From contig BTVE01000004.1 in the NCBI GenBank assembly GCA_045862915.1, positions 38,055 through 102,054 of the forward strand: DNA of 64,000 bases. The letters are read 5' to 3'. Origin of the DNA: Acidimicrobiia bacterium. Its GTDB lineage: Bacteria > Acidobacteriota > Vicinamibacteria > Vicinamibacterales > SCN-69-37. The notes under the pieces were generated by a model, which saw nothing but the letters and a program-made list of their open reading frames with translations, made no database searches and was not told the origin of the DNA. This document shows positions 26,913-64,000 of this stretch, piece by piece (the first letter of the stretch is position 1; every line of letters starts with the position of its first letter). Both the position numbers and the translations under genes were made by a program.

Positions 26913-26965
26913 CTGTCCCCCTGCGGACGCATTATAGAATCGCCACACTGATCTGGAGGTCGCTG

Positions 26966-37721: not shown

Positions 37722-37746
37722 TTCCACCAGGAGCCACGAAACGACA

Positions 37747-44778: not shown

Positions 44779-46881
44779 ATGCACACCCCGGCGCCGGCGA
44801 GCCTCGTGAGAGTGGCGTTTTTCGTGACGCTTGTGTTCTGGTGGGCCAACCTGGCCCTGACCTCACGTTGGCGCGAGGTGCCAGGGGCGCTCCACGGCGC
44901 ACGGCTTCCGTGGTTCGTCACTGCGCTTGGCATACTGACGCTCCTCGCCGTCCGGCCGCGCCGGCCGCAAGCCTCCCTGACGGCCCGCGACGGGCGGCTC
45001 CTCGCCGGCGCAGGGTCGCTGCTGCTTGGCGCCACCTTTCTTGTCTGGTTTCCACCGTACACCTGGTCCCAGATCCCCTGGCTCGACGACTGGATTCCCC
45101 GTTTCCGCTCAACCCGGGAATTTATTGACCTCCTGGCCACGGGTCGGGCGGCCGGTTGGCAGTGGGATTTCCTCGGCGGGTACCACACGAGCAGTGACGT
45201 CACGCAGAGCCTCGGCCTGCTGGCCGCCGTGCCGATGACGATCCTGGGGGATGCAGCCGGATTTCACGCGCTCCATCTGCTGCTGTTTGCCGCCATTCCC
45301 GCGCTGTTGTGGCTGGACCTCTCTCTTGACCCCGGTGACGCGGATGGCCATCCACACGCCATGGCAGGGGTCGCCGCAGGCATCGGCGCCGTCCTCGCCG
45401 CAGGCTATTCCTACACCCTGATTCGCAGCGGTGACACCAACTCGCTCGCCGGTGCCGTGCTCGTCCTGTCAACGCTCGTTGGCGCGCACGCCGCCAGGCG
45501 CGGACGGTGGTGGGGAGGGCACTGGCTGCTCGTCAGCCTCGTGTTTGTCGCCTGGTCGCACGCGGGCTCGTTTGTCTACGCGCTGGTGTACCTGGGGCTC
45601 GATGCGCTGCTCGCGCGTGACTGGCGCAGCGCGGCCCGCGCCGGCACGGCTGCGCTCGTTGCACAGTGCGCGGCGCTGCCGATGACATGGGAATCCTGGC
45701 GGTATCCAGACCTCTTCCTGTTCAACAACGTGCTGTACTCACCGCCGACAGCCATCGACTGGACCGCCCTCGCCCGCAAGGTCGCATACAACGTGGAGTT
45801 GTTGTGGCTGCCAGGCCGGTGGTCAAACGACTACGGCGCGCTGGCTCTGATCCTGCTGCCAGCGACGGCAGCGCTTCTGGTTGTGGACCGCACGCGCACG
45901 CGCCTGTATGCCGCTGCGGCGTTGGCGACTGTCGTGATGATGCGGCTCAACGATCCACATTTCGGTTACGCCTTCATCCGGCCGATCCACATGTTTCCCC
46001 TGCTGCTCGCGCCGGTCATCGCGCGGGTCAGCACCCGTCATCTCAGCAGGACCGGCGGCGTCGCGCTCCTGGCCACCGTCGCGATCTTCATTCAGATCTG
46101 GTGGCAGCCGGTGCCGCACATTCGTTCAATGCGCGACGTGTTCCCTGAACTCGTGGATCGCGTGGCTCGCGCCGACGGCGCGCTGGTGCTCGTGGAAAAC
46201 AACCCCCACCGCAACACCAACGCGGAGCCCGGAGGCGAGACGGTGGTATCCCTGACGGGCAACCACTACGAGGCCCTGCTGGCGCACGAGACCGGACGCC
46301 GCTTGTATGCGGGGTACTGGGACGGCTGGCAGTGGACACCCTGGCGCGGCCGCATGCTCAGCGGCGGGACCTGGATGGGGCAGGACATCCGTGATGTTTC
46401 ACACGACCGGATGGTTGGGGAATTGCAGTCGTGGGGCGTCGTTGATGTGTTCGTATGGTCGGCTCGCAGCCGGGCCTATTTCGAACAGGATTCCAGATTC
46501 ACCCGTGTCTGGGCTGAGGGACCGTGGACGCAATTTCGACGCAGCGACGCGGATGGACGCGAAGTGGTGACGATGGCGGGCGCCGGCGCCCTGGAAGATC
46601 GGTCGCTGCACGGCGGCGCGATTGTCCTGCGTGGAGTGCCCCTCGGCAGCCCTGTCGTCGTACGCACGAGTTATCACCCTTCGTGGCGTGCGTCGGTGGA
46701 TCAACGGTCCGTCCCCCTCTACGAGAAGGACGGACAGCTGGCGTTCATCGCGCCGTGCGCGCAGGACTGCACGGTGCTGCTCGACTACCCTCGGCGTTCG
46801 TGGCTCTGGGGTGTCGCGGTCGGCGCGTTGTTGCTTGGCGTGGCGCTGCTGCGCTACGACTTCGGAATGGTCCAGAAGTAG
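44779..46881 (+). CDS. Polytopic membrane protein of unknown function (possible lipid-linked glycosyltransferase-like)
   Basis: About 12 or more hydrophobic helices followed by a soluble domain and a final TM. The C-terminal pattern SYHPSWRA..DG...PL is reminiscent of YfhO/ArnT-like proteins. The functional guess is weak. Confidence 0.5.
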   Translation: MHTPAPASLVRVAFFVTLVFWWANLALTSRWREVPGALHGARLPWFVTALGILTLLAVRPRRPQASLTARDGRLLAGAGSLLLGATFLVWFPPYTWSQIPWLDDWIPRFRSTREFIDLLATGRAAGWQWDFLGGYHTSSDVTQSLGLLAAVPMTILGDAAGFHALHLLLFAAIPALLWLDLSLDPGDADGHPHAMAGVAAGIGAVLAAGYSYTLIRSGDTNSLAGAVLVLSTLVGAHAARRGRWWGGHWLLVSLVFVAWSHAGSFVYALVYLGLDALLARDWRSAARAGTAALVAQCAALPMTWESWRYPDLFLFNNVLYSPPTAIDWTALARKVAYNVELLWLPGRWSNDYGALALILLPATAALLVVDRTRTRLYAAAALATVVMMRLNDPHFGYAFIRPIHMFPLLLAPVIARVSTRHLSRTGGVALLATVAIFIQIWWQPVPHIRSMRDVFPELVDRVARADGALVLVENNPHRNTNAEPGGETVVSLTGNHYEALLAHETGRRLYAGYWDGWQWTPWRGRMLSGGTWMGQDIRDVSHDRMVGELQSWGVVDVFVWSARSRAYFEQDSRFTRVWAEGPWTQFRRSDADGREVVTMAGAGALEDRSLHGGAIVLRGVPLGSPVVVRTSYHPSWRASVDQRSVPLYEKDGQLAFIAPCAQDCTVLLDYPRRSWLWGVAVGALLLGVALLRYDFGMVQK

Positions 46882-48588: not shown

Positions 48589-48710
48589 GCCACGCGAAAC
48601 TTGGCACGGGTTTTCCTTTTACTTGGGTTGAACGGCCCGAATGTGGGGATGAACCGGGCGATAATCCCATTTTCGGGATTCGCCAATCTGGAATTCGGGG
48701 AGACGAGGAT

Positions 48711-50075
48711 TTGCCGACGCAACATGGCCGGGTGCTGGTAGCCGACGATCAGACCGACGTGCTCAACGCCCTGCGCCTCCTGCTGGGAGGCGAAGGGTAC
48801 GACGTCACAACGGTCACGTCGCCGTCGGAACTGGTGTCCGCGCTTGAAGGGGCGGACTTCGACGTCGCCCTGATCGATCTCAACTACACGCGCGACACCA
48901 CGTCGGGGCAGGAAGGGTTCGCCCTGCTCGACCGGATGAAAGCCATCGACCCGACGTTGCCGGTGCTGGTGATGACGGGATGGAGCAGTGTGGCCGGTGC
49001 CGTCGAGGCCATGCGTCGCGGGGCCCGGGACTACATCGAGAAGCCGTGGGACGACGAGAAGCTGCTGGTGGCGGTACAGACACAACTCGAATTGCGGCGC
49101 GCGCTGCGACGCAGTCGGCGTCTGCAGGAAGAAAACGCGCGCCTGCATCGCCGTGATCTGCCAACCTTCATCGCCGCGGCGCCGTCCATGCAACAGGTGC
49201 GCGAGACGATCGAACGTGTGGCGCCATCCGACGCCACCGTGTTGATCACCGGCGAACACGGCACCGGGAAGGAAGTCGTGGCCAGCCTGCTGCATCGACT
49301 GTCCACGCGCGCACAGAAGCCGCTGGTCACGATGAACGCCGGCGGATTGTCGGAAGGTGTGGCGGAGAGTGAACTGTTCGGACACGTCAAGGGCGCGTTC
49401 ACCGATGCCCGTACGGACCGTATTGGATGTTTTGAGCTTGCGGATGAAGGCACGCTGTTCCTCGACGAAATCGCCAACATGCCGGCGCGGCTGCAGCCGA
49501 AGCTGTTGCGCGTGCTGCAGACCGGCGAAGTGCAGAAGGTCGGGTCATCACGAGTGATCTTCGTGAACGTACGCGTGCTTTCGGCCACCAATGCGGATCT
49601 GCCCGCCGAAATCGCCTCAGGGCGGTTTCGTGAAGACCTGTTGTACCGGCTGAACACGGTCGTGATCCAGTTGCCGCCGTTGCGCGAACGCCGCGAAGAC
49701 ATCCTGCCGCTGGCCGAACACTACCTGGCGCGGTACGCAGAGCGGTACAAACGTGCGCTCGACGGCTTCGACCGGTCAGCCCGGCAGGCACTCGAGAGCC
49801 ACCTGTGGCCCGGCAATGTGCGTGAACTGGCACACGCCATTGAACGCTCGGTGCTGATGGCGCAGTCGTCGCACATCACGGCTCAGGACCTCGGGCTGCA
49901 GGGTGGCGCTGCGTCCTCCGGGCCGGCGGTCGAGGACATGACGCTCGAGCAGTCCGAAAAGCAGTTCATCCAGAAGGTACTCGCCAAACACAACGGTGAC
50001 GTGCGCAAAGCGGCCGAGCAGCTGGGAGTGAGCCGGTCCGCGCTCTACAGACGTCTGCAGTACTTCGGGTTATGA
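48711..50075 (+). CDS. Sigma-54-dependent NtrC-family response regulator
   Basis: Receiver domain, AAA+ GEHGTGKEVVA, ESELFGH..GAFTDA (GAFTGA-like), C-terminal Fis HTH SRSALYRRL. TTG start per the ORF track (GTG at 48729 is an alternative). Confidence 0.9.
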   Translation: MPTQHGRVLVADDQTDVLNALRLLLGGEGYDVTTVTSPSELVSALEGADFDVALIDLNYTRDTTSGQEGFALLDRMKAIDPTLPVLVMTGWSSVAGAVEAMRRGARDYIEKPWDDEKLLVAVQTQLELRRALRRSRRLQEENARLHRRDLPTFIAAAPSMQQVRETIERVAPSDATVLITGEHGTGKEVVASLLHRLSTRAQKPLVTMNAGGLSEGVAESELFGHVKGAFTDARTDRIGCFELADEGTLFLDEIANMPARLQPKLLRVLQTGEVQKVGSSRVIFVNVRVLSATNADLPAEIASGRFREDLLYRLNTVVIQLPPLRERREDILPLAEHYLARYAERYKRALDGFDRSARQALESHLWPGNVRELAHAIERSVLMAQSSHITAQDLGLQGGAASSGPAVEDMTLEQSEKQFIQKVLAKHNGDVRKAAEQLGVSRSALYRRLQYFGL

Positions 50076-51412
50076 GCGGACGTGGAGCGCCGCAGGCGCG
50101 CAATCTCGAACTGGGACTGACGCTGCTGGTGCTGGCCGGGGGCGCCCCGGCCGTGTGTGTGTCGCTCTACTTCCTGTGGCGGCTCGATCTCACGCCCGAG
50201 GTGCGCTGGACCCTCTCGGTCGTCGTGTTGCTGGCGTGGCTCATGGCCGCCTCCGCCGCGCGGCAGATGGTCGTCCGATCGCTCAACCTGATTGCCAATC
50301 TTCTCGGTGCACTCCGCGAAGGCGACTACTCGATTCGTGGGCTCAGCGCGCGCAGCGGCAGCACGATGGCGATGGTGATGCGTGAGGTCAACGACCTCGG
50401 ATCAACCCTCCAGCGTCAACGCACCGAAGCCGTGGAATCCACGGTGTTGCTGACGCACGTCATGGAAGAGATCGGCGTCGCCGTGTTCGCGTTTGATCCC
50501 ACACACCAGCTCCTGCTTGTCAACAAGGCCGGTGAACGCCTCTTTGGCCGCGCCTCGGCGGATCTGCTGGGGTCGTCCGCCGACTCGCTCGGCGTCAACG
50601 AATACCTGACCGGGGAACCGCGACGCCTGGTCGACCGCGCCTTTGATGGCCGGCAGGGCCGCTACGAAGTGCGCCGCGCCATGTTTTATCGTGACGGCCG
50701 GCCGCACAACCTCATCGTCATTGCCGACCTGTCCCAGGCGCTGCGCGAAGAAGAACAGGCGGCCTGGCAGCGTATCGTGCGGGTGTTGTCGCACGAGATC
50801 AACAACTCGCTGACGCCGATCAAGTCGATCGCTCACTCGCTGCGTCGCATCGTTGATCGTGTGGATCCGTTTCCGCGTCAGGATGAAGTCTCGCAGGGGT
50901 TGTCGCTCATCGAGGAGCGCTCGGGCGCGCTCGGGCGGTTCCTGCGGTCGTACGCGCAACTGGCAAGGCTGCCGAAGCCGCAGCCGCGGCCGCTGCGCGT
51001 CAGTGAACTGATGTCGCGCATTGTGGAGTTGGAGAAGCGGCTGCCGGTGGTCGTGAATCCGTCGACCGATGTGGACCTGGTGGCCGACTCGGATCAGCTC
51101 GAACAGGCGCTCATCAACATCGTTCGCAACGCCGTCGACGCGTCCATCGAAACCAGCGGCGGTGTGGCTGTGGGCTGGCGCCCTGACGGTGAGTGGGTGG
51201 AGATCACGATCGACGATGAGGGCAAGGGACTGCCGGACACCTCCAACCTGTTTGTCCCGTTTTTCACGACCAAGCCCAACGGCTCGGGGATTGGCCTTGC
51301 GCTCAGCCGGCAGATTGCCGAAGCGCACGGCGGCACGATCACGCTGGCCAATCGCACGCCGCATCCCGGTTGCCGGGCCACGATCCGTCTGCCGCTGACC
51401 TCCCGCGTCTGA
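50072..51412 (+). CDS. Membrane sensor histidine kinase (HAMP/PAS-HisKA-HATPase), partner of the NtrC-like regulator
   Basis: ATGA overlap with the regulator gene. H-box SHEINNSLTPI, N-box IVRNAVDAS, G-box GSGIGLALS. Confidence 0.88.
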   Translation: MSGRGAPQARNLELGLTLLVLAGGAPAVCVSLYFLWRLDLTPEVRWTLSVVVLLAWLMAASAARQMVVRSLNLIANLLGALREGDYSIRGLSARSGSTMAMVMREVNDLGSTLQRQRTEAVESTVLLTHVMEEIGVAVFAFDPTHQLLLVNKAGERLFGRASADLLGSSADSLGVNEYLTGEPRRLVDRAFDGRQGRYEVRRAMFYRDGRPHNLIVIADLSQALREEEQAAWQRIVRVLSHEINNSLTPIKSIAHSLRRIVDRVDPFPRQDEVSQGLSLIEERSGALGRFLRSYAQLARLPKPQPRPLRVSELMSRIVELEKRLPVVVNPSTDVDLVADSDQLEQALINIVRNAVDASIETSGGVAVGWRPDGEWVEITIDDEGKGLPDTSNLFVPFFTTKPNGSGIGLALSRQIAEAHGGTITLANRTPHPGCRATIRLPLTSRV

Positions 51413-51416
51413 CGCG

Positions 51417-53957
51417 TTACTGCACGAAGCGCACGCGGTCACCTTCATTAAGTTCGGTGAGCGCCGTCGTGATGACGAGTTCGCCGACCTCGAGGCCTCC
51501 AAGCACCTGCGTCAACTCGAGGGTGCCGAGACCCGTACGAACGTCTTTGCGCACGACCCGCCCGTCGGCTCCGGCGACCAGGACGTAGGTGACGCCGTTG
51601 GCCCGCAGAATTGCGCGCGAGGGGATCACCACGGCTTCCGGAATTTCGGCGACCAGCACATCACCAATGACCGGCGTGCCGACCGCGGGTTGCGCCGGCG
51701 GGGTGCCGGCTTCAGCATCGGGATTCGCTGTCCCGGTGACGGCGGCCATCGCATTGGTGGCCAGGGGCAGCGGCAACACGACACGTGTGGTTGTCGCTTC
51801 CGGAGCCGCGGGGACAATCTGCTGGACACTGGTCTGCACCGGCGCAAATCCCAGCGGCGTGACGGTGGCCTGTTGACCGGGCACCAGCTTGCCGGCGTCC
51901 CCTATCGGCACGTCGAGGACCACCTGGACTCGTGTGGGGTCGGCCACACGCAGCACGGGATCGCCCGGGCCTCCAACGACCGTGTCGCCCTGAAAGTGCC
52001 AGCGTTTGATGACCACACCAGGGAAACGCGCGCGCACGATGTCGCGTGACGCGGCCGCCTCCAGACTGCTGACCGTGGCTTTTGTGGCGGCCAGAGCCGA
52101 TTCAGCGCCGGCCAACGCCGACTTGGCGTTGTCTACCTCGATGCGAGGTGTCAGGCCGCGCTGGAGCAGGCCGGAGAGTTCAATCACACGCGCGCGGGCG
52201 GCTTCCACCTGCGCTGAGGCGTGCGCCACTTCCAGCGTCGCCGTCTGCAGGGCGGCGGTGCGCGACGGCACCTCAAAACGCACGAGGACGTCGCCGGCCT
52301 GCACGACCTGTCCCTCTTCCACCGGCAGTTCCTGAATCGTCGCCAGTTCCGACGCGGAGACCACGAAGTCGGCATCCGGATGTGGGGCGATCTCGCCGTT
52401 GGCGGTGACGGCTGACCGCAGTACGTTCAGGCGCACGGGTTCCACCGAGACTTCGATGCTCCCGCTCAGGTCCAGCGCTGGTGGCGCCTCGTCACGGCCA
52501 CAGGCTGCCGACAGGAGCAGCAGCACCGATGCCACGGTGGCGGCCGAGGCACGCAGCGGCAGCAGCGACAGGGCGACGGTGACACCCGCGCCGATCGGCG
52601 AATACCACGGCCAGGCAATGGGGGAGAACGTGTAGGTGGCGATCACGGTGACCCAGGCCACCAGCATCGCTCCGGCCACCTGCATGGCGGGCACCCGACG
52701 ACGGAGCAAGGCGATCAGAAAGGCGCCCAGCACCGGTCCCGCGCCCAGACCCAGGACCGACAGGCCGGCGTCGAGCACGGACTGCGTGAGTCGTGTGGCC
52801 AGCAGCGCAATCGCGATTTGCACCACACCCCACACGACGGTGGCGCGGTGTGCCACGCGCAACATCTGCGCATCGTCGGCTTTCGGATTCCAGTACTTCA
52901 GGTAGAAGTCGTTGACGGTCGTGGCGGCGAGCGAGTTGATGGAGGGTGAGAGGGCGGCGGCTACGATGGCGGCGACCACAAATCCCGCGAGGCCGACCGG
53001 CACATGGTCGCGCACGAATGTCGGGATCAACATGTCGGCGCGAGACAACTCCGGCGCCGCGCCCTGCTGGTAAAACGCCGCGAGCGCCACGCCGAGCAGC
53101 AGGAACAGCCCGAACTGCAGGAAGACCAGGATGCCCGACAGGGACAGCCCCCATTGCGCTTCTCGCTGTGACCGTGCCGTCAGCAGGCGTTGTACGAGGA
53201 ACTGATCGGTGCCGTGGGTCGCGAGCGTGAGTGTGATGCCGCCGACGATGCCGGCCCAGAAGGTGTAGGCCCTGAAGAAGTTCAGATCAAAATCAAAGAC
53301 GTCAAAACGTCCAGTGGCTGCGCCGAAGTCAAAGACGCCGGCGAGTCCGGTGGGCAGGCCGGCGACGGCAAACCAGAACACGATCAGCGCGCCGGCGAGA
53401 TACACGAACATCTGGATGACGTCCGTCCAGATGACGGCAGAGGCGCCGCCGTAGAACGTGTACACGATCATCGCGACTCCGAGCACGACGATTGCCACCC
53501 ACACGGGAACACCGACCAGTGTGGCCACGACCGCCGAGGTGGCAAACAGCCGGATGCCGTCGGCAGCGCTGCGCGTGAGGAGGAACATCGCGGATCCCAG
53601 GTTGCGGACGGGTGCGCCGAACCGCTCGTGCAGCACCTCGTACGACGTCAGTAACTCGCGCGCGAAGTACTTCGGAATGAACAGCGCGGAGATCAGGAAG
53701 CGCCCGGCGATGTATCCGAGGGCCAGTTGCAGGAATGCGAAGTTGCCCGACGCGGCATAGGTCTGCGCCGGAATGCCGATGAAGGTCAGCGTGCTGGTTT
53801 CGGTGGCGACCACCGTGAAGCAGACGGCCCACCATGGCACCGTGCGGCTGATCAGGAAATATTCGGAGGCCGTGGTCTGGCGCGAGGCGAAGCTGGACCC
53901 CAGCGCAATGAGCAGCAGCAGGTAAACGCCGATGACGGCGTAGTCAAGAAGGGCCAT
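51417..53957 (-). CDS. In-frame fusion: Na+/solute symporter (SSS family, residues ~1-465) + complete HlyD-type membrane-fusion adaptor (residues ~486-846)
   Basis: N-terminal half is a polytopic SSS-like sequence (YFLISRTVPWW...ATETSTLTFIGIPAQ). The junction LLLLSAAC(486)GRDE looks like a lipobox. The C-terminal half has lipoyl halves VQAGDVLVRFE / RARFPGVV, a coiled coil, a beta-barrel and a membrane-proximal domain. No stop codon separates the halves. Confidence 0.75.
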   Translation of the reverse strand: MALLDYAVIGVYLLLLIALGSSFASRQTTASEYFLISRTVPWWAVCFTVVATETSTLTFIGIPAQTYAASGNFAFLQLALGYIAGRFLISALFIPKYFARELLTSYEVLHERFGAPVRNLGSAMFLLTRSAADGIRLFATSAVVATLVGVPVWVAIVVLGVAMIVYTFYGGASAVIWTDVIQMFVYLAGALIVFWFAVAGLPTGLAGVFDFGAATGRFDVFDFDLNFFRAYTFWAGIVGGITLTLATHGTDQFLVQRLLTARSQREAQWGLSLSGILVFLQFGLFLLLGVALAAFYQQGAAPELSRADMLIPTFVRDHVPVGLAGFVVAAIVAAALSPSINSLAATTVNDFYLKYWNPKADDAQMLRVAHRATVVWGVVQIAIALLATRLTQSVLDAGLSVLGLGAGPVLGAFLIALLRRRVPAMQVAGAMLVAWVTVIATYTFSPIAWPWYSPIGAGVTVALSLLPLRASAATVASVLLLLSAACGRDEAPPALDLSGSIEVSVEPVRLNVLRSAVTANGEIAPHPDADFVVSASELATIQELPVEEGQVVQAGDVLVRFEVPSRTAALQTATLEVAHASAQVEAARARVIELSGLLQRGLTPRIEVDNAKSALAGAESALAATKATVSSLEAAASRDIVRARFPGVVIKRWHFQGDTVVGGPGDPVLRVADPTRVQVVLDVPIGDAGKLVPGQQATVTPLGFAPVQTSVQQIVPAAPEATTTRVVLPLPLATNAMAAVTGTANPDAEAGTPPAQPAVGTPVIGDVLVAEIPEAVVIPSRAILRANGVTYVLVAGADGRVVRKDVRTGLGTLELTQVLGGLEVGELVITTALTELNEGDRVRFVQ

Positions 53958-53986: not shown

Positions 53987-56632
53987 CTAACGCTGCCCGG
54001 TCAGGATGTGCCGCAGCTTGATGAGCAGGTCGATGGCCGTGAACGGCTTCTGCAGGAAGTGTGCGTCGGCGGGAAGGCCTTCGCTCGACAGCACGCCGTC
54101 GGCGTAACCCGAGATGAACAACGTCCGGAGTCCCGGTCTGGAGACGCGCAGTTCCTGCACCATGGCCGGTCCGCTGCCGCCCGGCATCACGACGTCGCTG
54201 ATGACCATGTCGATCCGCTTGGCCGAGGCGGCAACCTCCAGGGCGCGCGCGGCATTGTCGGCGACGAGCAACTGGTACCCGTGGCGTTGAAGCATCTGTT
54301 GCAGCAGCTTGGCGACCCCGGGCTCGTCTTCAACCAGCAGGAGTACCTCCGAACCTCCGGGCGCCGAGGCCTCGGAGACGACCCCCGATTCGACCGCGAG
54401 CAACTTGGTGGGGCGCAGGAACACGCTGAAGGTCGAGCCTTCGTTCGGCGCGCTCTCGACGTGAATGACGCCGCCCATCTGGCGGATGATGCCGTAGACG
54501 GTCGCGAGCCCGAGTCCCGTGCCTCTGCCGAATTCCTTGGTGGTGAAGAACGGTTCGAAGATACGTGCGCGGGTTGCGGCATCCATGCCGACGCCTGTGT
54601 CCTGCACGTCGAGTCGCACCCATTCGCCCGCGCCAAGTCCCGACGCGTTGCGCGGCGTTTCGGCGATGTGCAGCGACAGCCGGACCAGCAACCGTCCGCC
54701 CTTCGGCATGGCGTCGCGCGCGTTGACCGCCAGGTTGAGCAGTACCTGCTCCATCTGCGAGCGATCCGCGAGCACGGGCGGGATGGTGCCGACGGTTTCT
54801 CCGACGACTTCGATGTGTTCACCGATGAGCCGCCGCAGCATCGGCATGAGTTCGTCGATGGCGGCAGCCAGGTCGATGACGGTCGGCTGCACGACCTGAT
54901 GTCGGCTGAAGGCCAGCAGCTGCCGCGTCAGTCCGGCCGCACGCGTCGCCGCCTTCTGAATCTCCTGCACGTAGTCGCGACGTTCGGTGTCGGCGGCTGG
55001 CAGGTCGTTGTCGAGGCAGTCGGCGTAGCCCAGGATGGCGGTGAGCAGGTTGTTGAAGTCGTGTGCGATGCCGCCGGCCAGACGGCCCAGCGCTTCCATC
55101 TTCTGACCCTGGCGCAGGCGTTCTTCCAGTTCACGACGTTCGGTCACATCGCGGGTGACGGCGACAAAGCCCTGCAGGTCATCGGGCCCGGGTTCGAGCC
55201 GGCGGATGTGCGACAGCGCAATGAACTTTGTGCCGTCGTGCCGTGTGCCCTCGTGTTCGCGCATCACGCCACCGGCACGCGCCGCCTCGGCCAGCACGCC
55301 GAGAAAGACGTCTTCCGACATCCCGAAGAGGCGGGCCGCCGGGGTATCGACGACCTCGGCTTCGGCATAACCGAACACCGCGCCGGCGCCGACAGGCCAG
55401 TTCACGATGTGTCCGTGGTGATCGACGATCAGGATGGCGTAGTCCGTGATCGTGTCGAGCATCAGGCTCATGCGTTGCTCAACCTCACGGAGGCGCCGGT
55501 CCGCCGCGCGCCGCTCCCGCTCACGCGCCTCGGTCACCAGTTGCCCGTGGTCGAGAATGCCGCCCGCATACAAGCCGAGTTGCTCGAGCAGCCGCAGGTC
55601 GTCGTTCGGGAAAAGCGACCCATGCCGCTGCACGACGCCGACGACGCCCCAGCGGCGGACTGATGAGGAAATCGGCGCCAGCAGTACCGACGTACCTGTC
55701 CGTTTCAGCCCGTCACGCAGGCGCCCGTCCAGCGCGGACAGCGGCACGATTGAGGATTCCGCGACTCGGAAGGCGATGTCGGCCGGTCCGGCCTCGGCAT
55801 CGAGGACCGTGCCTTCCAGGCTCCGGTTCGTCGCGGCCCGCACGGTGACGTCTTCGCTCGTCACTGAGTCGCGAATCGCCACGAACACGGCCGACCCGGC
55901 GGCACCACGTTGTGCCGCGCGGAGCAGATCTGCAGCGGCATGTCGGCCCCGTTCTTCAGCTTCGCGGTCGGCGGTGTCCACCAGATACCGGCCGAGTTCG
56001 TCGCGTTGCCAGGACTTGCGCAGCCATCGCGGTGTGGCGAAGGCGAGGTAGAAGGCGATCTGGGCCACGCTGGACAGGGTGCGATTGATGAGGGCCGCTG
56101 TTTCCGACGCTACGTCAAGAACGAGGGCGCCGCCAACGACAAGGTGCACACCCATCAATCCCCACGCGCCAACGGCGGCCAGGACCAGTCGGCGAGCTGT
56201 CACGCCACCAGAACGGCGTGACTCATACGTGAAAGAGACCGCAGCCAGCAACAATCCGACAAAGGCGTATGTGGAGACGAGTGAAGACAGCCACACCGGC
56301 GAGGGAAGTGACGTCGCAGTGATCAGCACCGTGAGTCCCCCTGAAGCAGACAGACCCAGCGCGACAACGGCCCGCGGGACTTCCCGGAAATGCTGAATCA
56401 GGCGGAGGAGAAAGTACGGAAGGAAGACACCAGCAGCGAGAGGAATGATGATCAGACGACCACGCCACAACCCGGCGAGGAGTGGTGAGATCAGAAGAAG
56501 CCCAACGACGGCGAGGAGAATGTCGAGTCGACGGCCGTCCCGATGCCTGGTGGCGCCGCGCGTCGCACCCCATCCGGTGAGGCACAAACACAGGCCACCC
56601 AGCATGGACAGCAACCACACGATCGCGTTCAT
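53987..56632 (-). CDS. Polytopic hybrid sensor histidine kinase (multi-TM N-domain, GAF-like, PAS, HisKA, HATPase_c, receiver)
   Basis: H-box GGIAHDFNNLLTAILGY, N-box LNLAVNARDAM, G-boxes DTGVGM / GTGLGLATV, C-terminal receiver LLLVEDEP...VISDVVMPG. Confidence 0.9.
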   Translation of the reverse strand: MNAIVWLLSMLGGLCLCLTGWGATRGATRHRDGRRLDILLAVVGLLLISPLLAGLWRGRLIIIPLAAGVFLPYFLLRLIQHFREVPRAVVALGLSASGGLTVLITATSLPSPVWLSSLVSTYAFVGLLLAAVSFTYESRRSGGVTARRLVLAAVGAWGLMGVHLVVGGALVLDVASETAALINRTLSSVAQIAFYLAFATPRWLRKSWQRDELGRYLVDTADREAEERGRHAAADLLRAAQRGAAGSAVFVAIRDSVTSEDVTVRAATNRSLEGTVLDAEAGPADIAFRVAESSIVPLSALDGRLRDGLKRTGTSVLLAPISSSVRRWGVVGVVQRHGSLFPNDDLRLLEQLGLYAGGILDHGQLVTEARERERRAADRRLREVEQRMSLMLDTITDYAILIVDHHGHIVNWPVGAGAVFGYAEAEVVDTPAARLFGMSEDVFLGVLAEAARAGGVMREHEGTRHDGTKFIALSHIRRLEPGPDDLQGFVAVTRDVTERRELEERLRQGQKMEALGRLAGGIAHDFNNLLTAILGYADCLDNDLPAADTERRDYVQEIQKAATRAAGLTRQLLAFSRHQVVQPTVIDLAAAIDELMPMLRRLIGEHIEVVGETVGTIPPVLADRSQMEQVLLNLAVNARDAMPKGGRLLVRLSLHIAETPRNASGLGAGEWVRLDVQDTGVGMDAATRARIFEPFFTTKEFGRGTGLGLATVYGIIRQMGGVIHVESAPNEGSTFSVFLRPTKLLAVESGVVSEASAPGGSEVLLLVEDEPGVAKLLQQMLQRHGYQLLVADNAARALEVAASAKRIDMVISDVVMPGGSGPAMVQELRVSRPGLRTLFISGYADGVLSSEGLPADAHFLQKPFTAIDLLIKLRHILTGQR

Positions 56633-57177
56633 TCAACACCTTTCGCGAGCAGTCGCAAGGTCTGTCGGACGTCTGCGGTCTGCGCGTCGTCGGGAATCGA
56701 AGGCCACAGGTGCAGAATCACGCCGGTGGAGTCTATCAGGAACAACAGTGGAACATGGGTGACGCGCAGCTGGCTGGCGTCGATGACAGACACGGCGTCA
56801 GCGGGAATGCCCATGTCGGCGGCAAACGCCACTTCGGGGCCACGTTCACGTTCGGTGGTCGTCAACCGCGACGGGATGCCGGCGGCAGCTGCCAGGCGGA
56901 CAAACTCCGCATACGCATGCCGGCTCTGCTGACACGCGCCGCACGTGCTCCGCGCCATCACCAGCAGCGTGTATCGCGTGGTGCGATACAGGGCAGGATC
57001 GACATCAATGACTTCTCCCACCGCGTACGCCGGTGGCAGCGGCGCTGGTTCGATGCCGGCCCGTTGCCGAAGAGAGGGGCTGACTGACAGGGCGACGGAA
57101 GCCGCCAGCCCTGCGAGGCACAACACGATGACTGCACTGATGACGCGGCTGATCACCGCGTCGGACGCGGGAGCCAC
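56629..57177 (-). CDS. Membrane-anchored TlpA/ResA-like thiol:disulfide oxidoreductase (thioredoxin fold)
   Basis: N-terminal TM anchor, CxxC motif LLVMARSTCGACQQS, cis-Pro region VTHVPLLFLIDSTGVI. 4-nt overlap with the kinase gene. Confidence 0.75.
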   Translation of the reverse strand: MAPASDAVISRVISAVIVLCLAGLAASVALSVSPSLRQRAGIEPAPLPPAYAVGEVIDVDPALYRTTRYTLLVMARSTCGACQQSRHAYAEFVRLAAAAGIPSRLTTTERERGPEVAFAADMGIPADAVSVIDASQLRVTHVPLLFLIDSTGVILHLWPSIPDDAQTADVRQTLRLLAKGVE

Positions 57178-57183
57178 GATGGG

Positions 57184-57900
57184 TTAGGTCTGGACGCCGA
57201 CCTTGCACACGCCGTCGCAGGCGTCATTGAGCAACCAGCCGCAGGCGGGCCACGAGTCATCTACCGTGCAATTGCTCGAGCCATCACACCAGGTCATCGA
57301 CATCACGTCACAGCCCCAGTCGAGGCTGCACCAGCAGTCACCTGCAGACTCGGCCTGCACGACGAACTTCGCCCGCACCCAGTCGGTGAGCCGCAGGTGG
57401 AGCGGTGCCGCATTGACCAGCATCAACGTCTGGCGGTTGCCGAGGCGGTGCATCAGGTAGTCAGCCACGTCCGGGCCAAACAACTCCGTCACGCGCTCCG
57501 CGACGATGCGTGTGGCGGCGCGAGCGTTTTCGCGACCGTCGCCATCCATGGCGGCGAACGTGAGCCGTGTGACTTCGATGGCCGCGTTCAGGGCATCCAC
57601 CTGTTCGGACGACAGTTCCGGGTGCGAGTCCCGATAGGACGTGATGTGGTCAATCCAGACCTGCGCGCGGGCTTCGTTGGAAGGCAGGCGTCGGAGGATT
57701 TCCTTGCGATACGCGAATGGGTAGTCCTGAATCTGTCTGGCAGCCAGGTCGACCTGCCGGTCGCTGAGCGCCTGCGCCCAACTCGATGCGGACTGGACTT
57801 CGCCGGTAGTCATGGCCTTGATGAGGATGAAGTCGGCCGGAAGAGTCAGCGCGGCTACCACGACGCAGAAGATGAGACGACGACGAGTGCGAGTCGACAC
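57184..57900 (-). CDS. Fulvocin-C-related bacteriocin-type precursor (signal/anchor + ~160-aa helical pro-region + 8-Cys C-terminal domain)
   Basis: GTG start 7 nt after an AAGGAG RBS. The C-terminal domain is C-x-C-x5-C-x7-C-x5-C-x8-C-x7-C-x3-C (residues 189-232, nt 57205-57336), with CWCS and ACGW..ACDG elements resembling my recollection of fulvocin C. Confidence 0.6.
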   Translation of the reverse strand: MSTRTRRRLIFCVVVAALTLPADFILIKAMTTGEVQSASSWAQALSDRQVDLAARQIQDYPFAYRKEILRRLPSNEARAQVWIDHITSYRDSHPELSSEQVDALNAAIEVTRLTFAAMDGDGRENARAATRIVAERVTELFGPDVADYLMHRLGNRQTLMLVNAAPLHLRLTDWVRAKFVVQAESAGDCWCSLDWGCDVMSMTWCDGSSNCTVDDSWPACGWLLNDACDGVCKVGVQT

Positions 57901-57952: not shown

Positions 57953-57981
57953 ACTCTATTGACGAGCTAACTCATTGTCAA
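57953..57981 (-). promoter_or_regulatory. Sigma-70-type promoter candidate: TTGACA-N17-TAGAGT
   Basis: The minus strand reads TTGACAatgagttagctcgtcaaTAGAGT inside the only AT-rich stretch of the 145-nt intergenic region, about 50 nt upstream of the GTG at 57900. The -35/spacer also forms an imperfect palindrome ATTGAC...GTCAAT. Confidence 0.55.
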
Positions 57982-58045: not shown

Positions 58046-60307
58046 TTATTGCGAACTGAGGTCACCATAAAACTTCCAGTCCACATTCATGTCACGGCTG
58101 AGTGGCATTTTTGAAACCGCGAGGCGAAGGAAGGCCACGGGCATCGAGCCCTGCCGCATGATTTCGTCGTGGAATTCCTTCTCGGTGCGCATCCCTGAGT
58201 CGACCACTTCGCGTTTCATGCCGCGAATTTGCAGGCCGCCAACCAGGTAGGCCATCTGATAGAGCGGGCCATATTGGCCGCCAAAGGACCGGCGCACTTC
58301 GGCGGTGGCGTTGTCGCGTTCGTGTCCGACTTCGTTGACCAGGAACTCGATGCACTCCTGCGGCGACCATTGGCCCATGTGGAACTTCAGTGAGAACACG
58401 ATGCGCGCCGCGCGGTGCATGCGCCAGAACAACGCGCCGACCTTCTTCTCCGGCGTGTCGTGGAAACCCTTGTCGTAGAGGATGGTCTCCCAATACAGCG
58501 GCCAACCTTCGCCCAGGAATGGCGTGCTGCCCAGCCCGGCTCGGTAGCCGTTGAAGCGCTGGCCCATGAACCCGACGAGGTTGTGGCCCGGGATCATCTC
58601 GTGGTGGGCGACGGCATTCGAGAAGTACTTGTTGTTGCCGCGCAGCACCTGCATGCGTGTGTCGTACTCCTGCGTGTTGGTCGGGAACGCGACGAGAATC
58701 TGGGAGCCGCCGAGGAAAAACGGCGCCGTGAGCTGCCGCTCGGGTGACAACATCACCATGCGGAACGATTCGCTCGCCACTGCCGGCACCGTGATGAGGG
58801 CGTTGTTGCGCAGGTAGGTAACGGCCTCGAACAGCAGGTCGCGCACGTACTCAGGCTGGCGGCCCGGCGCGACGTACATGTTCTTGACGCGTTCGACGGC
58901 GGCGTTCCAGTCGTTGCCGAGGCCCATCTCCTGCGCGGCTTTTTCCATCTCACGCACGGTCCAGGCAAACTCGCGTTCGCCAAGGCGGATGAGTTCCTCT
59001 GGCGTGTACGGAATCATTTCGTTGGCGAGATCGAAGATCAGCCCATCCCTGCCTCGCGCGGCGCCGGGAATGCCGCTGTCGTCCTGCTTGCGCGGCGGAT
59101 TGGGATCCGGGCGGAAGGCCGCGCGCGCAATCTCGAGTTCCGACTGTTTCTTGATGAAGAGGTAGTCCACCTGGGCGTTGCGGCTCAGACGATCGAAGTC
59201 CAGTGTCTGCAGCGCCGTGAGCCACCGCTTGTAATAGTCGGGCGACCGCTGGACACCTGCGCCTCGCCCACGACCGCCGCTTCCGAGGAAGCGCTGCACC
59301 ACCGGCAGCATCTCGTCGGCCGGCAGCGCGATGATCTCCTTCAGGTCGGGCACACTCGACATCGCTGGTGCAGTCGCCGCGGCAATGGGCGTCACGGGCG
59401 GGCGTGCCGGGGCCGTCTGGTTGGCGGGCGCGACGGCGGTGCGCAGATACGCCGAGTAGTCCGTCATGGCCTTCTCCAGGTGCGCCCACGGCATGGGCAC
59501 CCACCAGGTGAACAGCGGGTCGAACGTGTTGTAGTGGTTGAACCACTCGGTCAACGCCGCGCGCATCGCGTCGGTTGCATCCGCCGCGTTGCGGGCCTGT
59601 GTGGCTGATGCGAGGAGCGCGTTCGTGCCGGTTCCGCCTGTAGCCCCGGCCTCCAGGGCCGCTCGCGACGCGCGCAGCGTCTTGGTGATCCGATCGATCG
59701 CTCCGGCCGACGCCTGGGCGTCCATGTCCCCCATGCGCATCCGATGCTCCACGACGGAGATCACATCGGCGGCAAACGGGATCAGCGGAGCGATGTCGTG
59801 GATGGCGGCCGCATCCGTGTCCAATTGCGTGAGGTTGGCCGTGATCGTCGCTTTCAGATCGGACAACTCGGTTCGCGCCGCGGGACTCAGCGACGCCGGG
59901 TCCAGGCCCGCGAGGGCAGACTGCCAGTCGAGATCAAAGCGCTTGAGCCGGGCGATACGGTTGGGAGAGACCGACACCGTAAATCCCGGAGCCTGAGGCG
60001 CAGGCGCCGCCGCACCGGCATCGCCGCCACGGCCGCCTCGACCCCCACGACCCGCGCCGCCCTGCCGCCCGGCGCCGGGCAGGTAGTTGCCGTTCAGGGT
60101 GTTCCGGTCCATGTTGTACCGCTGCACCACCAGGCGCATCTCGCTCTGCTGCGGCGCGAGCAGCGGGCGAAGGTCGGACGGCACGTCTTCGGCCGGAGCC
60201 TGTTGTGGTGCCTGGAATCCCACGGCCGGGACGGCGAACATCGTCGCCGCAGCTGTTCCCACCAGCACCGCCCCCACACACACCTGTCGCCAGAACTTCA
60301 TCGCCAT
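58046..60307 (-). CDS. Secreted DUF885-family metalloprotein (paralog 1)
   Basis: Start at MAMKFWRQVCVGAVLVGTAAA (signal peptide). Gly/Arg-rich segment GRQGGAGRGGRGGRGG. HEMIPGHN and EGWPLYWE blocks typical of DUF885. Confidence 0.75.
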   Translation of the reverse strand: MAMKFWRQVCVGAVLVGTAAATMFAVPAVGFQAPQQAPAEDVPSDLRPLLAPQQSEMRLVVQRYNMDRNTLNGNYLPGAGRQGGAGRGGRGGRGGDAGAAAPAPQAPGFTVSVSPNRIARLKRFDLDWQSALAGLDPASLSPAARTELSDLKATITANLTQLDTDAAAIHDIAPLIPFAADVISVVEHRMRMGDMDAQASAGAIDRITKTLRASRAALEAGATGGTGTNALLASATQARNAADATDAMRAALTEWFNHYNTFDPLFTWWVPMPWAHLEKAMTDYSAYLRTAVAPANQTAPARPPVTPIAAATAPAMSSVPDLKEIIALPADEMLPVVQRFLGSGGRGRGAGVQRSPDYYKRWLTALQTLDFDRLSRNAQVDYLFIKKQSELEIARAAFRPDPNPPRKQDDSGIPGAARGRDGLIFDLANEMIPYTPEELIRLGEREFAWTVREMEKAAQEMGLGNDWNAAVERVKNMYVAPGRQPEYVRDLLFEAVTYLRNNALITVPAVASESFRMVMLSPERQLTAPFFLGGSQILVAFPTNTQEYDTRMQVLRGNNKYFSNAVAHHEMIPGHNLVGFMGQRFNGYRAGLGSTPFLGEGWPLYWETILYDKGFHDTPEKKVGALFWRMHRAARIVFSLKFHMGQWSPQECIEFLVNEVGHERDNATAEVRRSFGGQYGPLYQMAYLVGGLQIRGMKREVVDSGMRTEKEFHDEIMRQGSMPVAFLRLAVSKMPLSRDMNVDWKFYGDLSSQ

Positions 60308-60400
60308 TCGACCAGTCTCCTGTAGCTGGATTGCTGCCGTGTACTGTAACGGACACCCGCAATTACGACCACCGATGCAACTTTCTTTCGCCTGCCGTGT

Positions 60401-60967
60401 TTGTCCAGTGATGAGGCGCTCGTGAGCGACGCCGCGGCATTCGAGGCGTTTGTCCTGGAGTTCCAGGACCTCGTCTACGGGACGGCCCTGCGGCTGTTGT
60501 CCAATCCGGCGGAGGCAGAAGACGTGGCACAGACGGTGTTTATGAAGGCATTTGAGCGATTTGACGACGTGGTCGGGAACCCGTCTGCGCCCGGCTGGCT
60601 CAAGACGGTGACGACCAACCAGTGCCTCAACCACCTCAACCGCTATCGCAATCGCTGGCGCCTCTTCAGCGAAATGGAATCGGGTTCTTCGGGTCCAACG
60701 GGTCCGTCAGGTCCTTCAGGTCCGTCAGGTCCGTCAGGTCCGGAGGAGGTCGTCGAGGTCTTGGAGTCGACGCTCAGGACGCTGCCTGCGCATCAGCGAG
60801 TGCCGATCGTGCTGTTTTATTTCGACGAGCTGAGTTACCAGCAGATTGCCGATCGGCTGTCCGTGCCGCTCAGCAAAGTGAAGAGCGATATTCACCGGGG
60901 CCGGCAGGCCCTGCGCGAGGCGCTGACCGCGGCCGGCTTTGCAAGGAGCTCCCATGCAGGCGCATGA
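60401..60967 (+). CDS. ECF sigma factor with (G-P-S)n linker insertion
   Basis: Region 2 (DLVYGTALRLL..AEDVAQTVFMKAF, WLKTVTTNQCLNHLNRYR) and region 4 (LSYQQIADRLSVPLSKVKSDIHRGRQAL). TTG start per track (GTG at 60422 is an alternative). Confidence 0.85.
   Translation: MSSDEALVSDAAAFEAFVLEFQDLVYGTALRLLSNPAEAEDVAQTVFMKAFERFDDVVGNPSAPGWLKTVTTNQCLNHLNRYRNRWRLFSEMESGSSGPTGPSGPSGPSGPSGPEEVVEVLESTLRTLPAHQRVPIVLFYFDELSYQQIADRLSVPLSKVKSDIHRGRQALREALTAAGFARSSHAGA
60683..60745. repeat. 9-bp tandem repeat, 7 units (consensus GGTCCGTCA) inside the ECF sigma gene
   Basis: Read directly: GGTTCTTCG GGTCCAACG GGTCCGTCA GGTCCTTCA GGTCCGTCA GGTCCGTCA GGTCCGGAG. Encodes GSSGPTGPSGPSGPSGPSGPE. Confidence 0.9.
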
Positions 60968-61385
60968 CGATGAGCCGGTGGTGCGGCACGACGACCTCGG
61001 TCGTGCACTGCGCGCCCTGCCGTTGCCGCGGGCACCACGCACACTCGCACCGCGTGTGATGGCCGCCGTCGCCGCGCGGCTGCAGCGGCGGGACTACACC
61101 TGGTTCGACTGGCCACTCTGGGCGCAGGTCGGATCGGCACTGGGAATCGTGTTGTTGTGTGCGGTCGGTGCCCTGGGCTGGACGACCCTGTCGTCGTCCC
61201 CGGCATTTGAATCCGATGTGTCCCTCATACGCGCGGCAGTGGTGGTGGCGCGGGCCGTGTGGCAGCCCGTGATGGGCACGTTCCTGGTGACCGTGACGGC
61301 CTTGCTGCTGATGGCCGGCACGTGTGCCGCGCTGGTCAGTCGGGTGGTGTTTGGCACCGACGATGTGACGGAGATGGTCCGATGA
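60954..61385 (+). CDS. Membrane anti-sigma factor candidate
   Basis: Overlaps the sigma gene stop. Short cytoplasmic N-terminus followed by TM helices, the usual position for an ECF anti-sigma. No specific motif recognised. Confidence 0.5.
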   Translation: MQAHDDEPVVRHDDLGRALRALPLPRAPRTLAPRVMAAVAARLQRRDYTWFDWPLWAQVGSALGIVLLCAVGALGWTTLSSSPAFESDVSLIRAAVVVARAVWQPVMGTFLVTVTALLLMAGTCAALVSRVVFGTDDVTEMVR

Positions 61386-62952: not shown

Positions 62953-62976
62953 TCATTTCCTCATTTCTTTCATTTC
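62953..62976. repeat. Triple TCATTTC heptamer in a 25-nt convergent intergenic spacer
   Basis: TCATTTC at 62953, 62961 and 62970. The third copy contains the stop codon (TCA = TGA on minus) of DUF885 paralog 2. Confidence 0.8.
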
Positions 62977-64000
62977 CCCACTTGAATGTCCCCGTAGAAC
63001 TTCCAGTCGAGGTTCGTGTCGCGGGACAGGGGCATCGTCGAGATCGCCATGCGCGTGAGCGGGAACGGCATTGAACCCTGGAGCACCACCGCGTCGTGGA
63101 ACTGCTTGAGGGTCATCTGGCCGGAGTCGACGAGCTCCTTCTTCAGACCGCGCAGCTGGAGTCCACCGAGCAGGTACGCTGCCTGGTAGAGCGGACCGTA
63201 GTTCCCCTGGAAGGAGCGGCGCACTTCAGCGATGGCGTTCTCGCGTTCATGGCCCACTTCGTTGACCAGGAAGTCCACGCACTCCTGCGGCGACCACTGA
63301 CCCATGTGGAACTTCAACGAGAACACGATGCGGGCAGCGCGGTGCATGCGCCAGAACAACGCGCCGATCTTCTTGTGCGGCGTGTCGTGGAAGCCGAGAT
63401 CCCAGAACATCGTCTCCCAGTAGAGCGCCCACCCTTCGCCGTAGAACGGCGTGGAGATGCCGAGGTTCGCGCGGTGCCCGTTGAGGCGCTGGCCCATGTA
63501 GGCCGTGTAGTTGTGGCCCGGGATCATCTCGTGGCCGGCCGTGGCGTTTGAGAAACCGGGGTTGTTGCCGCGCATGCTCTGGATGCGCTGGTCGTACTCC
63601 ATCGTGTCGGTGGGGTAGGAGACGCTGATGATTGCGCCGCCGGTGAAAAACGGATTCACGAGCTGGCGTTCCGGCGACATCATGCCCATGCGCAGCGCCT
63701 CACGGTTGACCGGGGTGATCGTGATGAGGTCGTTGTAGATCAGGAAGTCCGCCGCGTCGTGCACGAGGCCCTGAATCATCTGCGGCTGCTCGCCGGGCGG
63801 GACCGCGGTGTTCTTGGTGTGCTCCAGGGCCTGCATCCAGTTGGTGCCGAACCCGAGTTCGATGGACGCCTTCTCCATCTCGGCCACCGTCCAGGCGAAC
63901 TCGCGGTTGCCGAGTTCGATCAGTTCCTCCGGCGAGTACGGGATCATCTCGTCGGCCAGGTCGAGAATCAGGCCGTCGCGTCCTCGCGCGGCGCCTTCGA
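62970..64000 (-). CDS. DUF885-family metalloprotein (paralog 2; N-terminal part beyond window edge)
   Basis: The reading frame stays open to base 64000. Roughly two-thirds identical by eye to the C-terminal 330 aa of the 58046..60307 product (same HEMIPGHN, ALFWRMHRAARIVFSLKFHMGQWSPQEC blocks). Confidence 0.8.
   Translation of the reverse strand, partial: EGAARGRDGLILDLADEMIPYSPEELIELGNREFAWTVAEMEKASIELGFGTNWMQALEHTKNTAVPPGEQPQMIQGLVHDAADFLIYNDLITITPVNREALRMGMMSPERQLVNPFFTGGAIISVSYPTDTMEYDQRIQSMRGNNPGFSNATAGHEMIPGHNYTAYMGQRLNGHRANLGISTPFYGEGWALYWETMFWDLGFHDTPHKKIGALFWRMHRAARIVFSLKFHMGQWSPQECVDFLVNEVGHERENAIAEVRRSFQGNYGPLYQAAYLLGGLQLRGLKKELVDSGQMTLKQFHDAVVLQGSMPFPLTRMAISTMPLSRDTNLDWKFYGDIQVGK

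Follow-up and report, generated by a model that had tools for sequence, protein, structure and literature searches.

A sodium/solute symporter fused in frame to an efflux adaptor through a predicted internal lipoprotein signal peptide in Vicinamibacterales

When one bacterial gene encodes both a solute symporter and an efflux adaptor, does the cell obtain one protein from it or two? This question is raised by an open reading frame (ORF) at 51417..53957 on the minus strand of a 64,000-nucleotide stretch of DNA from Acidimicrobiia bacterium (GenBank assembly GCA_045862915.1, contig BTVE01000004.1, positions 38,055 to 102,054 of the forward strand), hereafter called the window. The ORF starts with ATG at 53957..53955 and encodes 846 amino acids followed by a stop codon. 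Its N-terminal part is a transporter of the sodium/solute symporter (SSS) family, and its C-terminal part is a periplasmic adaptor, or membrane fusion protein (MFP). The original prediction for this locus correctly described an uninterrupted 846-codon frame and numbered its residues correctly, including a cysteine at position 486, and left the strand unstated; read on the plus strand, these coordinates contain many stop codons. The domain architecture is new; both component families are well known. Such ORFs are currently named in databases either 'SSS transporter' or 'efflux RND adaptor' (RND, resistance-nodulation-division), and neither of these single-half names is adequate; annotation is where the practical lesson would lie should the fusion prove to be merely processed.

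The fusion is not a product of chance or of assembly. Searching 5.8 billion protein clusters, we recovered the identical protein and 35 others of full length (830-855 aa), together with seven shorter matches that are truncated gene calls of the same fused architecture; about 43 clusters at 90% identity share the fusion. The search for this architecture in other genomes and the genuine fusion that the original prediction had put forward as one of two alternatives were thereby borne out. The fused orthologs are 64-76% identical, come from assemblies held by NCBI, JGI, ENA and Logan and, where named, belong to Vicinamibacterales or Acidobacteria. Neither a stop codon nor a frameshift was seen between the halves in any of them and, since these independent assemblies show the same uninterrupted frame, an assembly artefact is ruled out. 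When 1.84 billion representatives, clustered at 50% identity, were searched, P0036 alone proved to span both halves, so the fusion is confined to, and arose in, one clade of uncultured soil Vicinamibacterales (Acidobacteriota). Our literature search found no fusion or other combination of an SSS protein with an adaptor. Three contigs (L013, L016 and P0039) are syntenic with the Vicinamibacterales loci and carry the labels 'Acidimicrobiia' or 'Solibacteraceae' in their metagenome-assembled genomes, which probably reflects binning or taxonomy errors.

The symporter domain (SLC5-type; residues 1-465, 52563..53957; this and all other features of the ORF lie on the minus strand) exceeds the curated cut-offs for membership in the SSS family (TC 2.A.21). 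The Pfam family SSF (PF00474) matches residues 33-433 with an E-value of 1.3e-34 (120.3 bits against a cut-off of 22.8), and the NCBIfam model TIGR00813 'sss' reaches 206.7 bits, its cut-off being 184. In an AlphaFold2 model that used a 130-sequence alignment (mean predicted local distance difference test score, pLDDT, of 93), this half takes the LeuT-type fold of the family, with 13 helices in an N-out/C-in arrangement, at a pLDDT above 90; with the 36 close orthologs as the only input, its pLDDT was about 50. Foldseek aligned the modelled half with SiaT, the Na+/sialic acid symporter of Proteus mirabilis (5NVA/5NV9), at a TM-score of 0.88-0.90, a root-mean-square deviation of 2.2-3.0 Å and 27-28% identity, the first two values being 0.90 and 2.2 Å for 5NVA, and its closest relatives are SMVT, SiaT, SMCT1 and NIS (NIS, SMVT and SMCT1 forming the SLC5A5/6/8 group). 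Profiles, fold and the SiaT match all agree with the SSS-type transporter that had been proposed for residues 1 to about 465. SiaT has 13 transmembrane (TM) helices, a periplasmic N-terminus and a cytoplasmic C-terminus (PMC5931594). Because of this topology, the distribution of Lys and Arg residues (14 in cytoplasmic loops against five in periplasmic loops) and the end of the stand-alone symporter ortholog, which terminates in ...GLRRAR right after its 13th helix, we place the end of TM13 (residues 449-465) in the cytoplasm.

When an HMMER alignment was placed onto the sites described for SiaT (PMC5931594), Ala56, Ser60, Thr63, Phe78 and Gln82 of SiaT corresponded to identical residues here (Ala51, Ser55, Thr58, Phe73 and Gln77), the Na3-site Asp182 corresponded to Asp179, and Thr58 of SiaT was replaced by Glu53. 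Arg135, which pairs with the substrate carboxylate in SiaT, aligns with Ala132, which is flanked on both sides, one helical turn away, by the invariant Arg129 and Arg136. The positions of the Na2-site residues Ser342/Ser343 fall in a three-residue deletion; the model breaks helix 8 at Leu-Ser-Pro-Ser 336-339, and the invariant Ser337-Pro-Ser339 at this break could stand in for the Na2 hydroxyl pair, the Na2 carbonyl positions in the unwound part of helix 1 (Ala51 and Thr54) being conserved. We infer that this half is probably a working importer of a carboxylated solute.

Relatives of the symporter half at 35-44% identity show that extra periplasmic modules recur in this SSS subfamily. They are transporter-enzyme fusions (P0184, P0191, P0218, P0219, P0229, P0252, P0286, P0312 and P0315) in which the partner is the sialic-acid epimerase NanM, the exo-muramidase NamZ at either terminus, or a beta-lactamase-fold domain to which NamZ_N may be added. 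Since NamZ and NanM are enzymes of N-acetylmuramic acid (MurNAc) and sialic acid, they point to amino-sugar acids as the theme of the subfamily. As in these SSS-NamZ, SSS-beta-lactamase-fold and NanM-SSS proteins and in CbrA and MxtR (SSS-STAC-kinase), the SSS domain is here a module of a larger protein, and those SSS proteins with a C-terminal periplasmic partner likewise need an extra helix after TM13. Unlike these multidomain proteins, the fused protein has an efflux adaptor as its partner and a complete lipoprotein signal peptide as its junction, and compared with SiaT it has an additional 14th helix and periplasmic domain of 360 residues. The multidomain SSS proteins known so far are sensor kinases, and an efflux-adaptor partner is not mentioned in the SSS review that describes them (PMC7918813).

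The adaptor domain (residues 487-846, 51420..52499), at whose start lies a disordered tether (487-500), is complete, with the lipoyl, alpha-hairpin, beta-barrel and membrane-proximal domains that had been listed for it. TIGR01730 'RND_mfp' matches residues 508-843 at 111.5 bits (cut-off 94.9), HlyD_D23 (PF16576) and HlyD_3 (PF13437) both score above their cut-offs, and profiles and four-domain layout together assign this half to the adaptor/MFP family (TC 8.A.1). Its domains are modelled at a pLDDT of 94-98, including an alpha-helical hairpin (residues 564-637, 52047..52268) of two helices of about 35 residues each (564-599 and 605-637). Foldseek gave full-length matches to TMexC (9j3d_D), MacA, AcrA and MexA with E-values of 1e-15 to 1e-19, and a sequence search returned TriAB (6vej), a MexC-like protein, MacA and MexJ. 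The half shares with AcrA, MexA, TMexC, TriA/TriB and MacA the full four-domain layout and a lipobox Cys that opens the mature part. It differs from RND-type adaptors in that its signal peptide is internal, behind a 465-residue transporter, in that a disordered insert precedes the membrane-proximal domain, and in that no pump or outer-membrane factor gene adjoins it in any orthologous locus. The insert is an Ala/Pro/Thr-rich low-complexity segment at residues ~730-761 (51675..51770) that is predicted to be disordered (pLDDT 53-59 in blocks 731-750) and whose alignment columns are gapped or variable among orthologs. Adaptors are usually anchored in the inner membrane by an N-terminal Cys that is lipidated and processed by signal peptidase II, or by an N-terminal helix (PMC4446572); here the candidate anchor is the lipobox residue Cys486 after a signal-peptide-like helix, unusually internal to the ORF.

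The two halves are joined by the sequence ...AWPWYSPIGAGVTVALSLLP-LR-ASAATVASVLLLLSAA-C486-GRDEAPP, in which we recognize, with sequence and numbering alike, the hydrophobic segment ending in a lipobox Cys486-Gly that had been noted before. Residues 466-485 (52503..52562) form a short cytoplasmic turn with Arg469 and then a 14th helix (TM14, residues 468-484 in the model); Cys486 (TGT, 52500..52502) is the +1 residue of the lipobox, predicted to receive diacylglycerol and to border the signal peptidase II site (Ala485/Cys486), and lies in a disordered tether of residues 485-498 (pLDDT <50). Since the symporter ends in the cytoplasm and TM14 recrosses the membrane, the whole adaptor is placed in the periplasm by this predicted topology, which answers the question of whether the extra helix does so.

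In the 36 full-length fused orthologs TM13 is followed by one or two Arg residues (none in one of the 36), a hydrophobic run and [A/G]-Cys-[G/S]. The last Lys or Arg is separated from the Cys by 14-18 mostly hydrophobic residues in 32 of the 36, the turn between TM13 and TM14 is 2-8 residues long, and Arg469 is the majority residue (83% of orthologs). Cys486 is invariant in all 36, and in 22 of 22 sequences of a second alignment; it is the sole invariant column of the linker (residues 466-499), with Gly487 conserved at 97%, and its codon is TGT in the window and TGC, a synonymous codon, in L001, L002 and L013. The mean majority-residue fraction across orthologs is 0.90 in the symporter, 0.71 in the adaptor and 0.55 in the linker. 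This layout of a charged n-region, a short h-region and a lipobox Cys at +1 fits the definition of the lipobox and of signal peptidase II substrates (PMC9360617) and matches the N-terminal signal peptides of nine stand-alone adaptor orthologs. It departs from a lipoprotein in one respect, position: the signal begins at residue ~466, after 13 helices, and not at the N-terminus of the precursor. A literature search for an internal lipobox in a polytopic protein gave no relevant case. In the DNA of the window, L001, L002 and L013, no in-frame start codon is conserved at the junction and the best Shine-Dalgarno match is 3/6, so separate initiation of the adaptor is unlikely.

The nine stand-alone clusters came from a search with the adaptor half. 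All have ordinary N-terminal lipoprotein signal peptides and lie in loci that are syntenic with the window; they show 50-55% identity to the window's adaptor half, a range shared with the fused adaptor halves (49-65%). In L008, L014 and L017 the order of genes is a fulvocin-related protein, a 182-aa protein, a hybrid kinase, the adaptor alone and then a convergent kinase and sigma-54 regulator. In L003-5, L009, L010, L015 and L016 a lipoprotein adaptor of 364-367 aa (MRRRLAGLTLLAAVAAC...) retains its position in the locus, and the symporter is a protein of its own (474 aa, 82% identity to the window half) encoded about 5 kb away behind an operon of a sigma-ECF factor, an anti-sigma factor and an RDD protein. 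The remaining stand-alone symporters are at most 59% identical to the window half, and no symporter was seen within about 8-10 kb of the adaptor in L008, L014, L017, L011, L028 and L030. In L003 the free adaptor starts with MAGL..., as the fused genes do, and directly upstream of it (4066..4330, minus strand) is a remnant of about 90 codons that joins the N-terminal membrane piece of a hybrid histidine kinase to its C-terminal receiver tail, which suggests an internal deletion or rearrangement.

Scanning one genome per species, we obtained 80 adaptor loci, nearly all of them labelled Acidobacteriota; the few other labels are probably due to mis-binning. The search pattern, GD[VIL][LV]VRF..., under-samples the fused clade (consensus GDxIARF), and the gene caller overlooked the adaptor in about 19 of the 92 loci that were fetched, so the counts of genomic context are minimum figures. 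The adaptors fall into two groups. The canonical group, at 32-38% identity, lies between OEP and AcrB-type genes (an upstream OEP in 24 of 24 cases and a downstream ACR_tran in 21 of 21, by Pfam), and these OEP-adaptor-AcrB operons of the same phylum hold the nearest relatives that are not orphans. The other group is pump-less and contains the fused clade; most of its members converge on the PAS kinase (73-93% identity) and sigma-54 regulator that also adjoin the fused gene. The slot beside the pump-less adaptor is empty in L011, L028 and L030 and holds a membrane protein of 214-239 aa without a family in L018 and L020, and one of 701 aa in L027. In L032 the slot downstream of the adaptor holds a transporter of the major facilitator superfamily (MFS), and in L025 an SSS paralog (54% identity) is found on the same strand 868 nt downstream.

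In neighbour-joining trees the unfused forms are nested within the fused clade, and the outgroup adaptors (31-42% identity) are all unfused lipoproteins; by these trees the unfused adaptor is the ancestral state. The history is likely to have run from a free orphan adaptor through one fusion to at least two fissions or losses. The trees were built without bootstrap, and the split lineage takes one position in the symporter tree and another in the adaptor tree, which makes the number of fission events uncertain and our count tentative.

Our preferred answer to the opening question, to which we give a probability of about one half, is that the ORF encodes a polyprotein-like precursor from which the adaptor would be exported, lipidated and cut free by signal peptidase II, giving two proteins in a 1:1 ratio. 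A SiaT-like symporter gene would have come to lie directly upstream of an orphan adaptor lipoprotein gene, and the stop codon and spacer between them would have been lost. The adaptor's own signal peptide is kept whole as TM14, which by sequence and model carries the chain to the periplasm; Lgt would diacylglycerylate Cys486, and LspA (signal peptidase II) would then cut before it. The products would be a 485-residue symporter, one helix longer at its C-terminus, and an adaptor of about 37 kDa in mature lipoprotein form, made 1:1 at the same insertion site. The released adaptor would act like the free adaptors of the sister lineages, most plausibly as a bridge between a transporter of the inner membrane and a channel of the outer membrane that are encoded elsewhere, and the symporter would import a carboxylated small solute; the benefit of the fusion would lie in co-expression and co-localization and not in an obligatory physical machine. 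We infer processing by Lgt and LspA because the lipobox Cys is strictly conserved and the stand-alone orthologs are ordinary lipoproteins, and the junction's complete and invariant signal peptide is what suggests separation after translation.

A precedent is fbcH of Bradyrhizobium japonicum, whose single precursor contains cytochromes b and c1 and is cleaved at the internal signal peptide of c1. As here, one ORF runs from a polytopic part that ends in the cytoplasm through a signal peptide into a periplasmic domain. FbcH is processed by signal peptidase I, as shown by experiment, whereas the putative site in the fused protein is of the signal peptidase II type.

Several points weigh against the two-protein precursor. 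Cleavage and lipidation are read from sequence alone, and our literature search found no instance of Lgt or LspA acting on a signal peptide behind 13 helices. The very short turn between TM13 and TM14 might hinder access of LspA, and lipid anchoring without any cleavage could be reason enough to retain the conserved Cys. The -3 position of the lipobox is often Ala, Ser, Thr or Gly and not Leu, a trait that the stand-alone orthologs share. The fusion has also outlasted divergence of the adaptor half to about 50% identity, and downstream of the adaptor lie an SSS paralog in L025 and an MFS transporter in L032; these are hints that function links the adaptor to secondary transporters more closely than co-expression would. 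If the precursor is processed, it would be a bacterial polyprotein of the lipoprotein type, and the protein offers a natural test of whether Lgt and LspA can handle a signal peptide behind a 13-helix transporter.

The first alternative is that the protein stays whole, with TM14 as a permanent anchor and the adaptor working physically with the symporter to which it is fused, which we regard as unlikely. In such a machine adaptor oligomers would dock an outer-membrane channel over a ring of symporters, for Na+-driven funnelled uptake or reversed export. The stability of the fusion across about 43 clusters would fit this, as would the symporter ortholog that remains within about 5 kb after fission, the independent SSS paralog and the MFS gene downstream of the adaptor in L025 and L032, the full-length adaptor hairpin with its membrane-proximal domain, and the C-terminal periplasmic partner domains carried by other relatives in the SSS subfamily. 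The pairing of an MFS transporter with an adaptor is also well established (EmrAB-TolC; 8zar is among the Foldseek matches). In EmrAB-TolC a secondary transporter driven by an ion gradient is likewise associated with an adaptor of the same superfamily. However, EmrB is an MFS antiporter and exporter and a separate protein, EmrA being anchored by its own N-terminal helix, whereas the transporter here belongs to an importer type, SSS, its link to the adaptor is covalent at the level of the gene, and the assembly is a putative one.

A protein anchored by a TM helix needs no invariant lipobox Cys, and a covalent 1:1 link would force six 14-helix domains around one channel. The adaptors of L008, L014, L017, L011, L028 and L030 stand without a visible symporter within about 8-10 kb, the two genes of L025 are 868 nt apart, and in other genomes the slot between adaptor and kinase is occupied by unrelated genes. 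SSS proteins are importers, the searched literature holds no SSS-adaptor system, and an outer-membrane factor gene is lacking nearby. The recruitment of an adaptor to a symporter in a tripartite-like assembly, which the original prediction had suggested, is thus not supported: close relatives at the same locus have a free adaptor, with the symporter in another operon or not seen within about 8-10 kb, and the ancestral unfused state also speaks against it. That the adaptor stays attached to the symporter, or bound to it after cleavage, in a trans-envelope assembly with an outer-membrane channel powered by the SSS protein is in our view quite improbable. If this were true, MFPs would gain a new class of inner-membrane partner beside those of the RND, ATP-binding cassette (ABC), MFS and PET types, and the assembly might be the first adaptor-mediated uptake conduit. 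The locus is also a natural test of whether periplasmic adaptors can be recruited to transporter classes beyond RND, ABC and MFS.

A second alternative, to which we also give little credence, is that the fusion is a tolerated accident in which the chain is uncut, or its processing irrelevant, and the symporter merely replaces the lipid anchor of a functionally unrelated adaptor whose pump, of the RND or MacB type, is encoded at another place in the genome. The ancestral free orphan adaptor and the RND-operon adaptors as closest non-orphan relatives agree with this, as do the signs of a rearrangement-prone region (the kinase remnant of L003 and the varying slot genes of L018, L020, L027 and L032) and the many orphan MacB-like duplicated permeases in these genomes (L002, L006 and L018). 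Against it, the fusion has persisted over a long divergence with both halves under purifying selection (0.90 and 0.71, as given above), and the whole signal peptide has been retained, which argues that processing still matters.

The last alternative, an indel that removed a stop codon or two genes with translation of the adaptor from an internal GTG, as the original prediction had also considered, can be set aside as highly improbable: GTG codons are present at the junction in the window, but the uninterrupted frame of at least 36 independently assembled orthologs effectively refutes an artefact, the four DNA sequences show no conserved start and no adequate Shine-Dalgarno match, and initiation at GTG codon 475 would give a signal peptide without a charged n-region.

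The fused gene has no pump gene beside it. The earlier statement that no pump partner lies nearby was upheld for about 10 kb either side: within this distance no ACR_tran gene, no MacB/FtsX permease with an ATPase and no MFS transporter of the DHA2 type was found in the window, L001, L008, L009 or L011, and the cognate pump gene that adjoins the adaptor in tripartite efflux systems is absent. No gene of the OEP/TolC family was seen in the annotated parts of the window. A MacB-type permease at 22724..23995 was considered as a partner and rejected, since it lies at a distance of 27 kb and is already provided with three HlyD-like genes; it closes a plus-strand cluster (19163..23995) of tandem HlyD-like ORFs (19163-20143, 20143-21420 and 21087-22727) followed by the MacB_PCD/FtsX permease, beside which no ABC ATPase was identified. 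Orphan permeases of duplicated MacB_PCD-FtsX-MacB_PCD-FtsX architecture (~790-930 aa) are frequent near these loci (L002 4666..7026, where the permease is about 3 kb from the adaptor, L006 9528..12029 and L018 18253..20721, and also L054, L063, L064, L077 and L078) and are candidate partners of the pump-less adaptors.

On its 3' side the fused gene is convergent with a two-component pair on the plus strand, a sigma-54 response regulator (48711..50075) and a PAS histidine kinase (50072..51412). No neighbour of the adaptor clade, fused or unfused, is more constant than this pair, which is conserved beside the adaptor in L001, L002, L008-L018, L025, L027, L028, L030 and L032. The fusion also draws attention to the pump-less adaptor clade of Acidobacteriota as a whole, whose members have the pair beside them in most orthologous loci. 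An identity as PrsK/PrsR was rejected, the scores lying below the cut-offs. About 95 nt upstream of the regulator gene, the sequence TGGCACGGGTTTTCC (48602..48616, plus strand) has one mismatch to the sigma-54 -24/-12 consensus and is the region's sole near-consensus site. The regulator could be autoregulated through this putative site; matches to the sigma-54 consensus occur in the window at the number expected by chance, and no sigma-54 promoter was found upstream of the fused gene or its operon.

Upstream on the minus strand, a hybrid histidine kinase (53987..56632; TM N-terminus, GAF/PAS, HisKA, HATPase and REC) ends 29 nt before the fused gene and probably shares a transcript with it, and the same order of kinase and adaptor is found in L001, L008, L013, L014 and L017. 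It is preceded by a 182-aa protein (56629..57177), which has a thioredoxin-like CGAC motif and matches no family, and by a Cys-rich fulvocin-C-related protein of 238 aa (57184..57900; NF033852, 76.2 bits against a cut-off of 35). These three genes and the fused gene form a probable four-gene operon running from 57900 to 51417, with a sigma-70-like promoter match upstream at 57981..57953; all other results of our promoter and terminator scans were at chance level. The fulvocin-related and 182-aa genes accompany the adaptor in part of the clade only (the window, L001, L008 and L017). About ten Cys residues lie in the final 50 residues of the fulvocin-C-related ('bacteriocin') protein, and the fulvocin-related and CGAC genes, with the hybrid kinase and adaptor, resemble a small cluster of the bacteriocin type.

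Further upstream, two DUF885 paralogs flank a sigma-ECF/anti-sigma/RDD-DUF8173 operon (58046..60634, minus; 60401..62944, plus; 62970..63998, minus), the operon at whose end the symporter gene is found in the split lineages. A polytopic protein of 600-730 aa without a Pfam or NCBIfam match is encoded at 44779..46881 (plus) and recurs near the locus in L002, L003, L011 and L027, though not in all lineages. Unrelated genes in the window include one for a 1017-aa DUF5695 protein at 24021..27074 (minus; 1198 bits) and one for a copper-type P-type ATPase with an extended N-terminus at 37567..40158 (plus).

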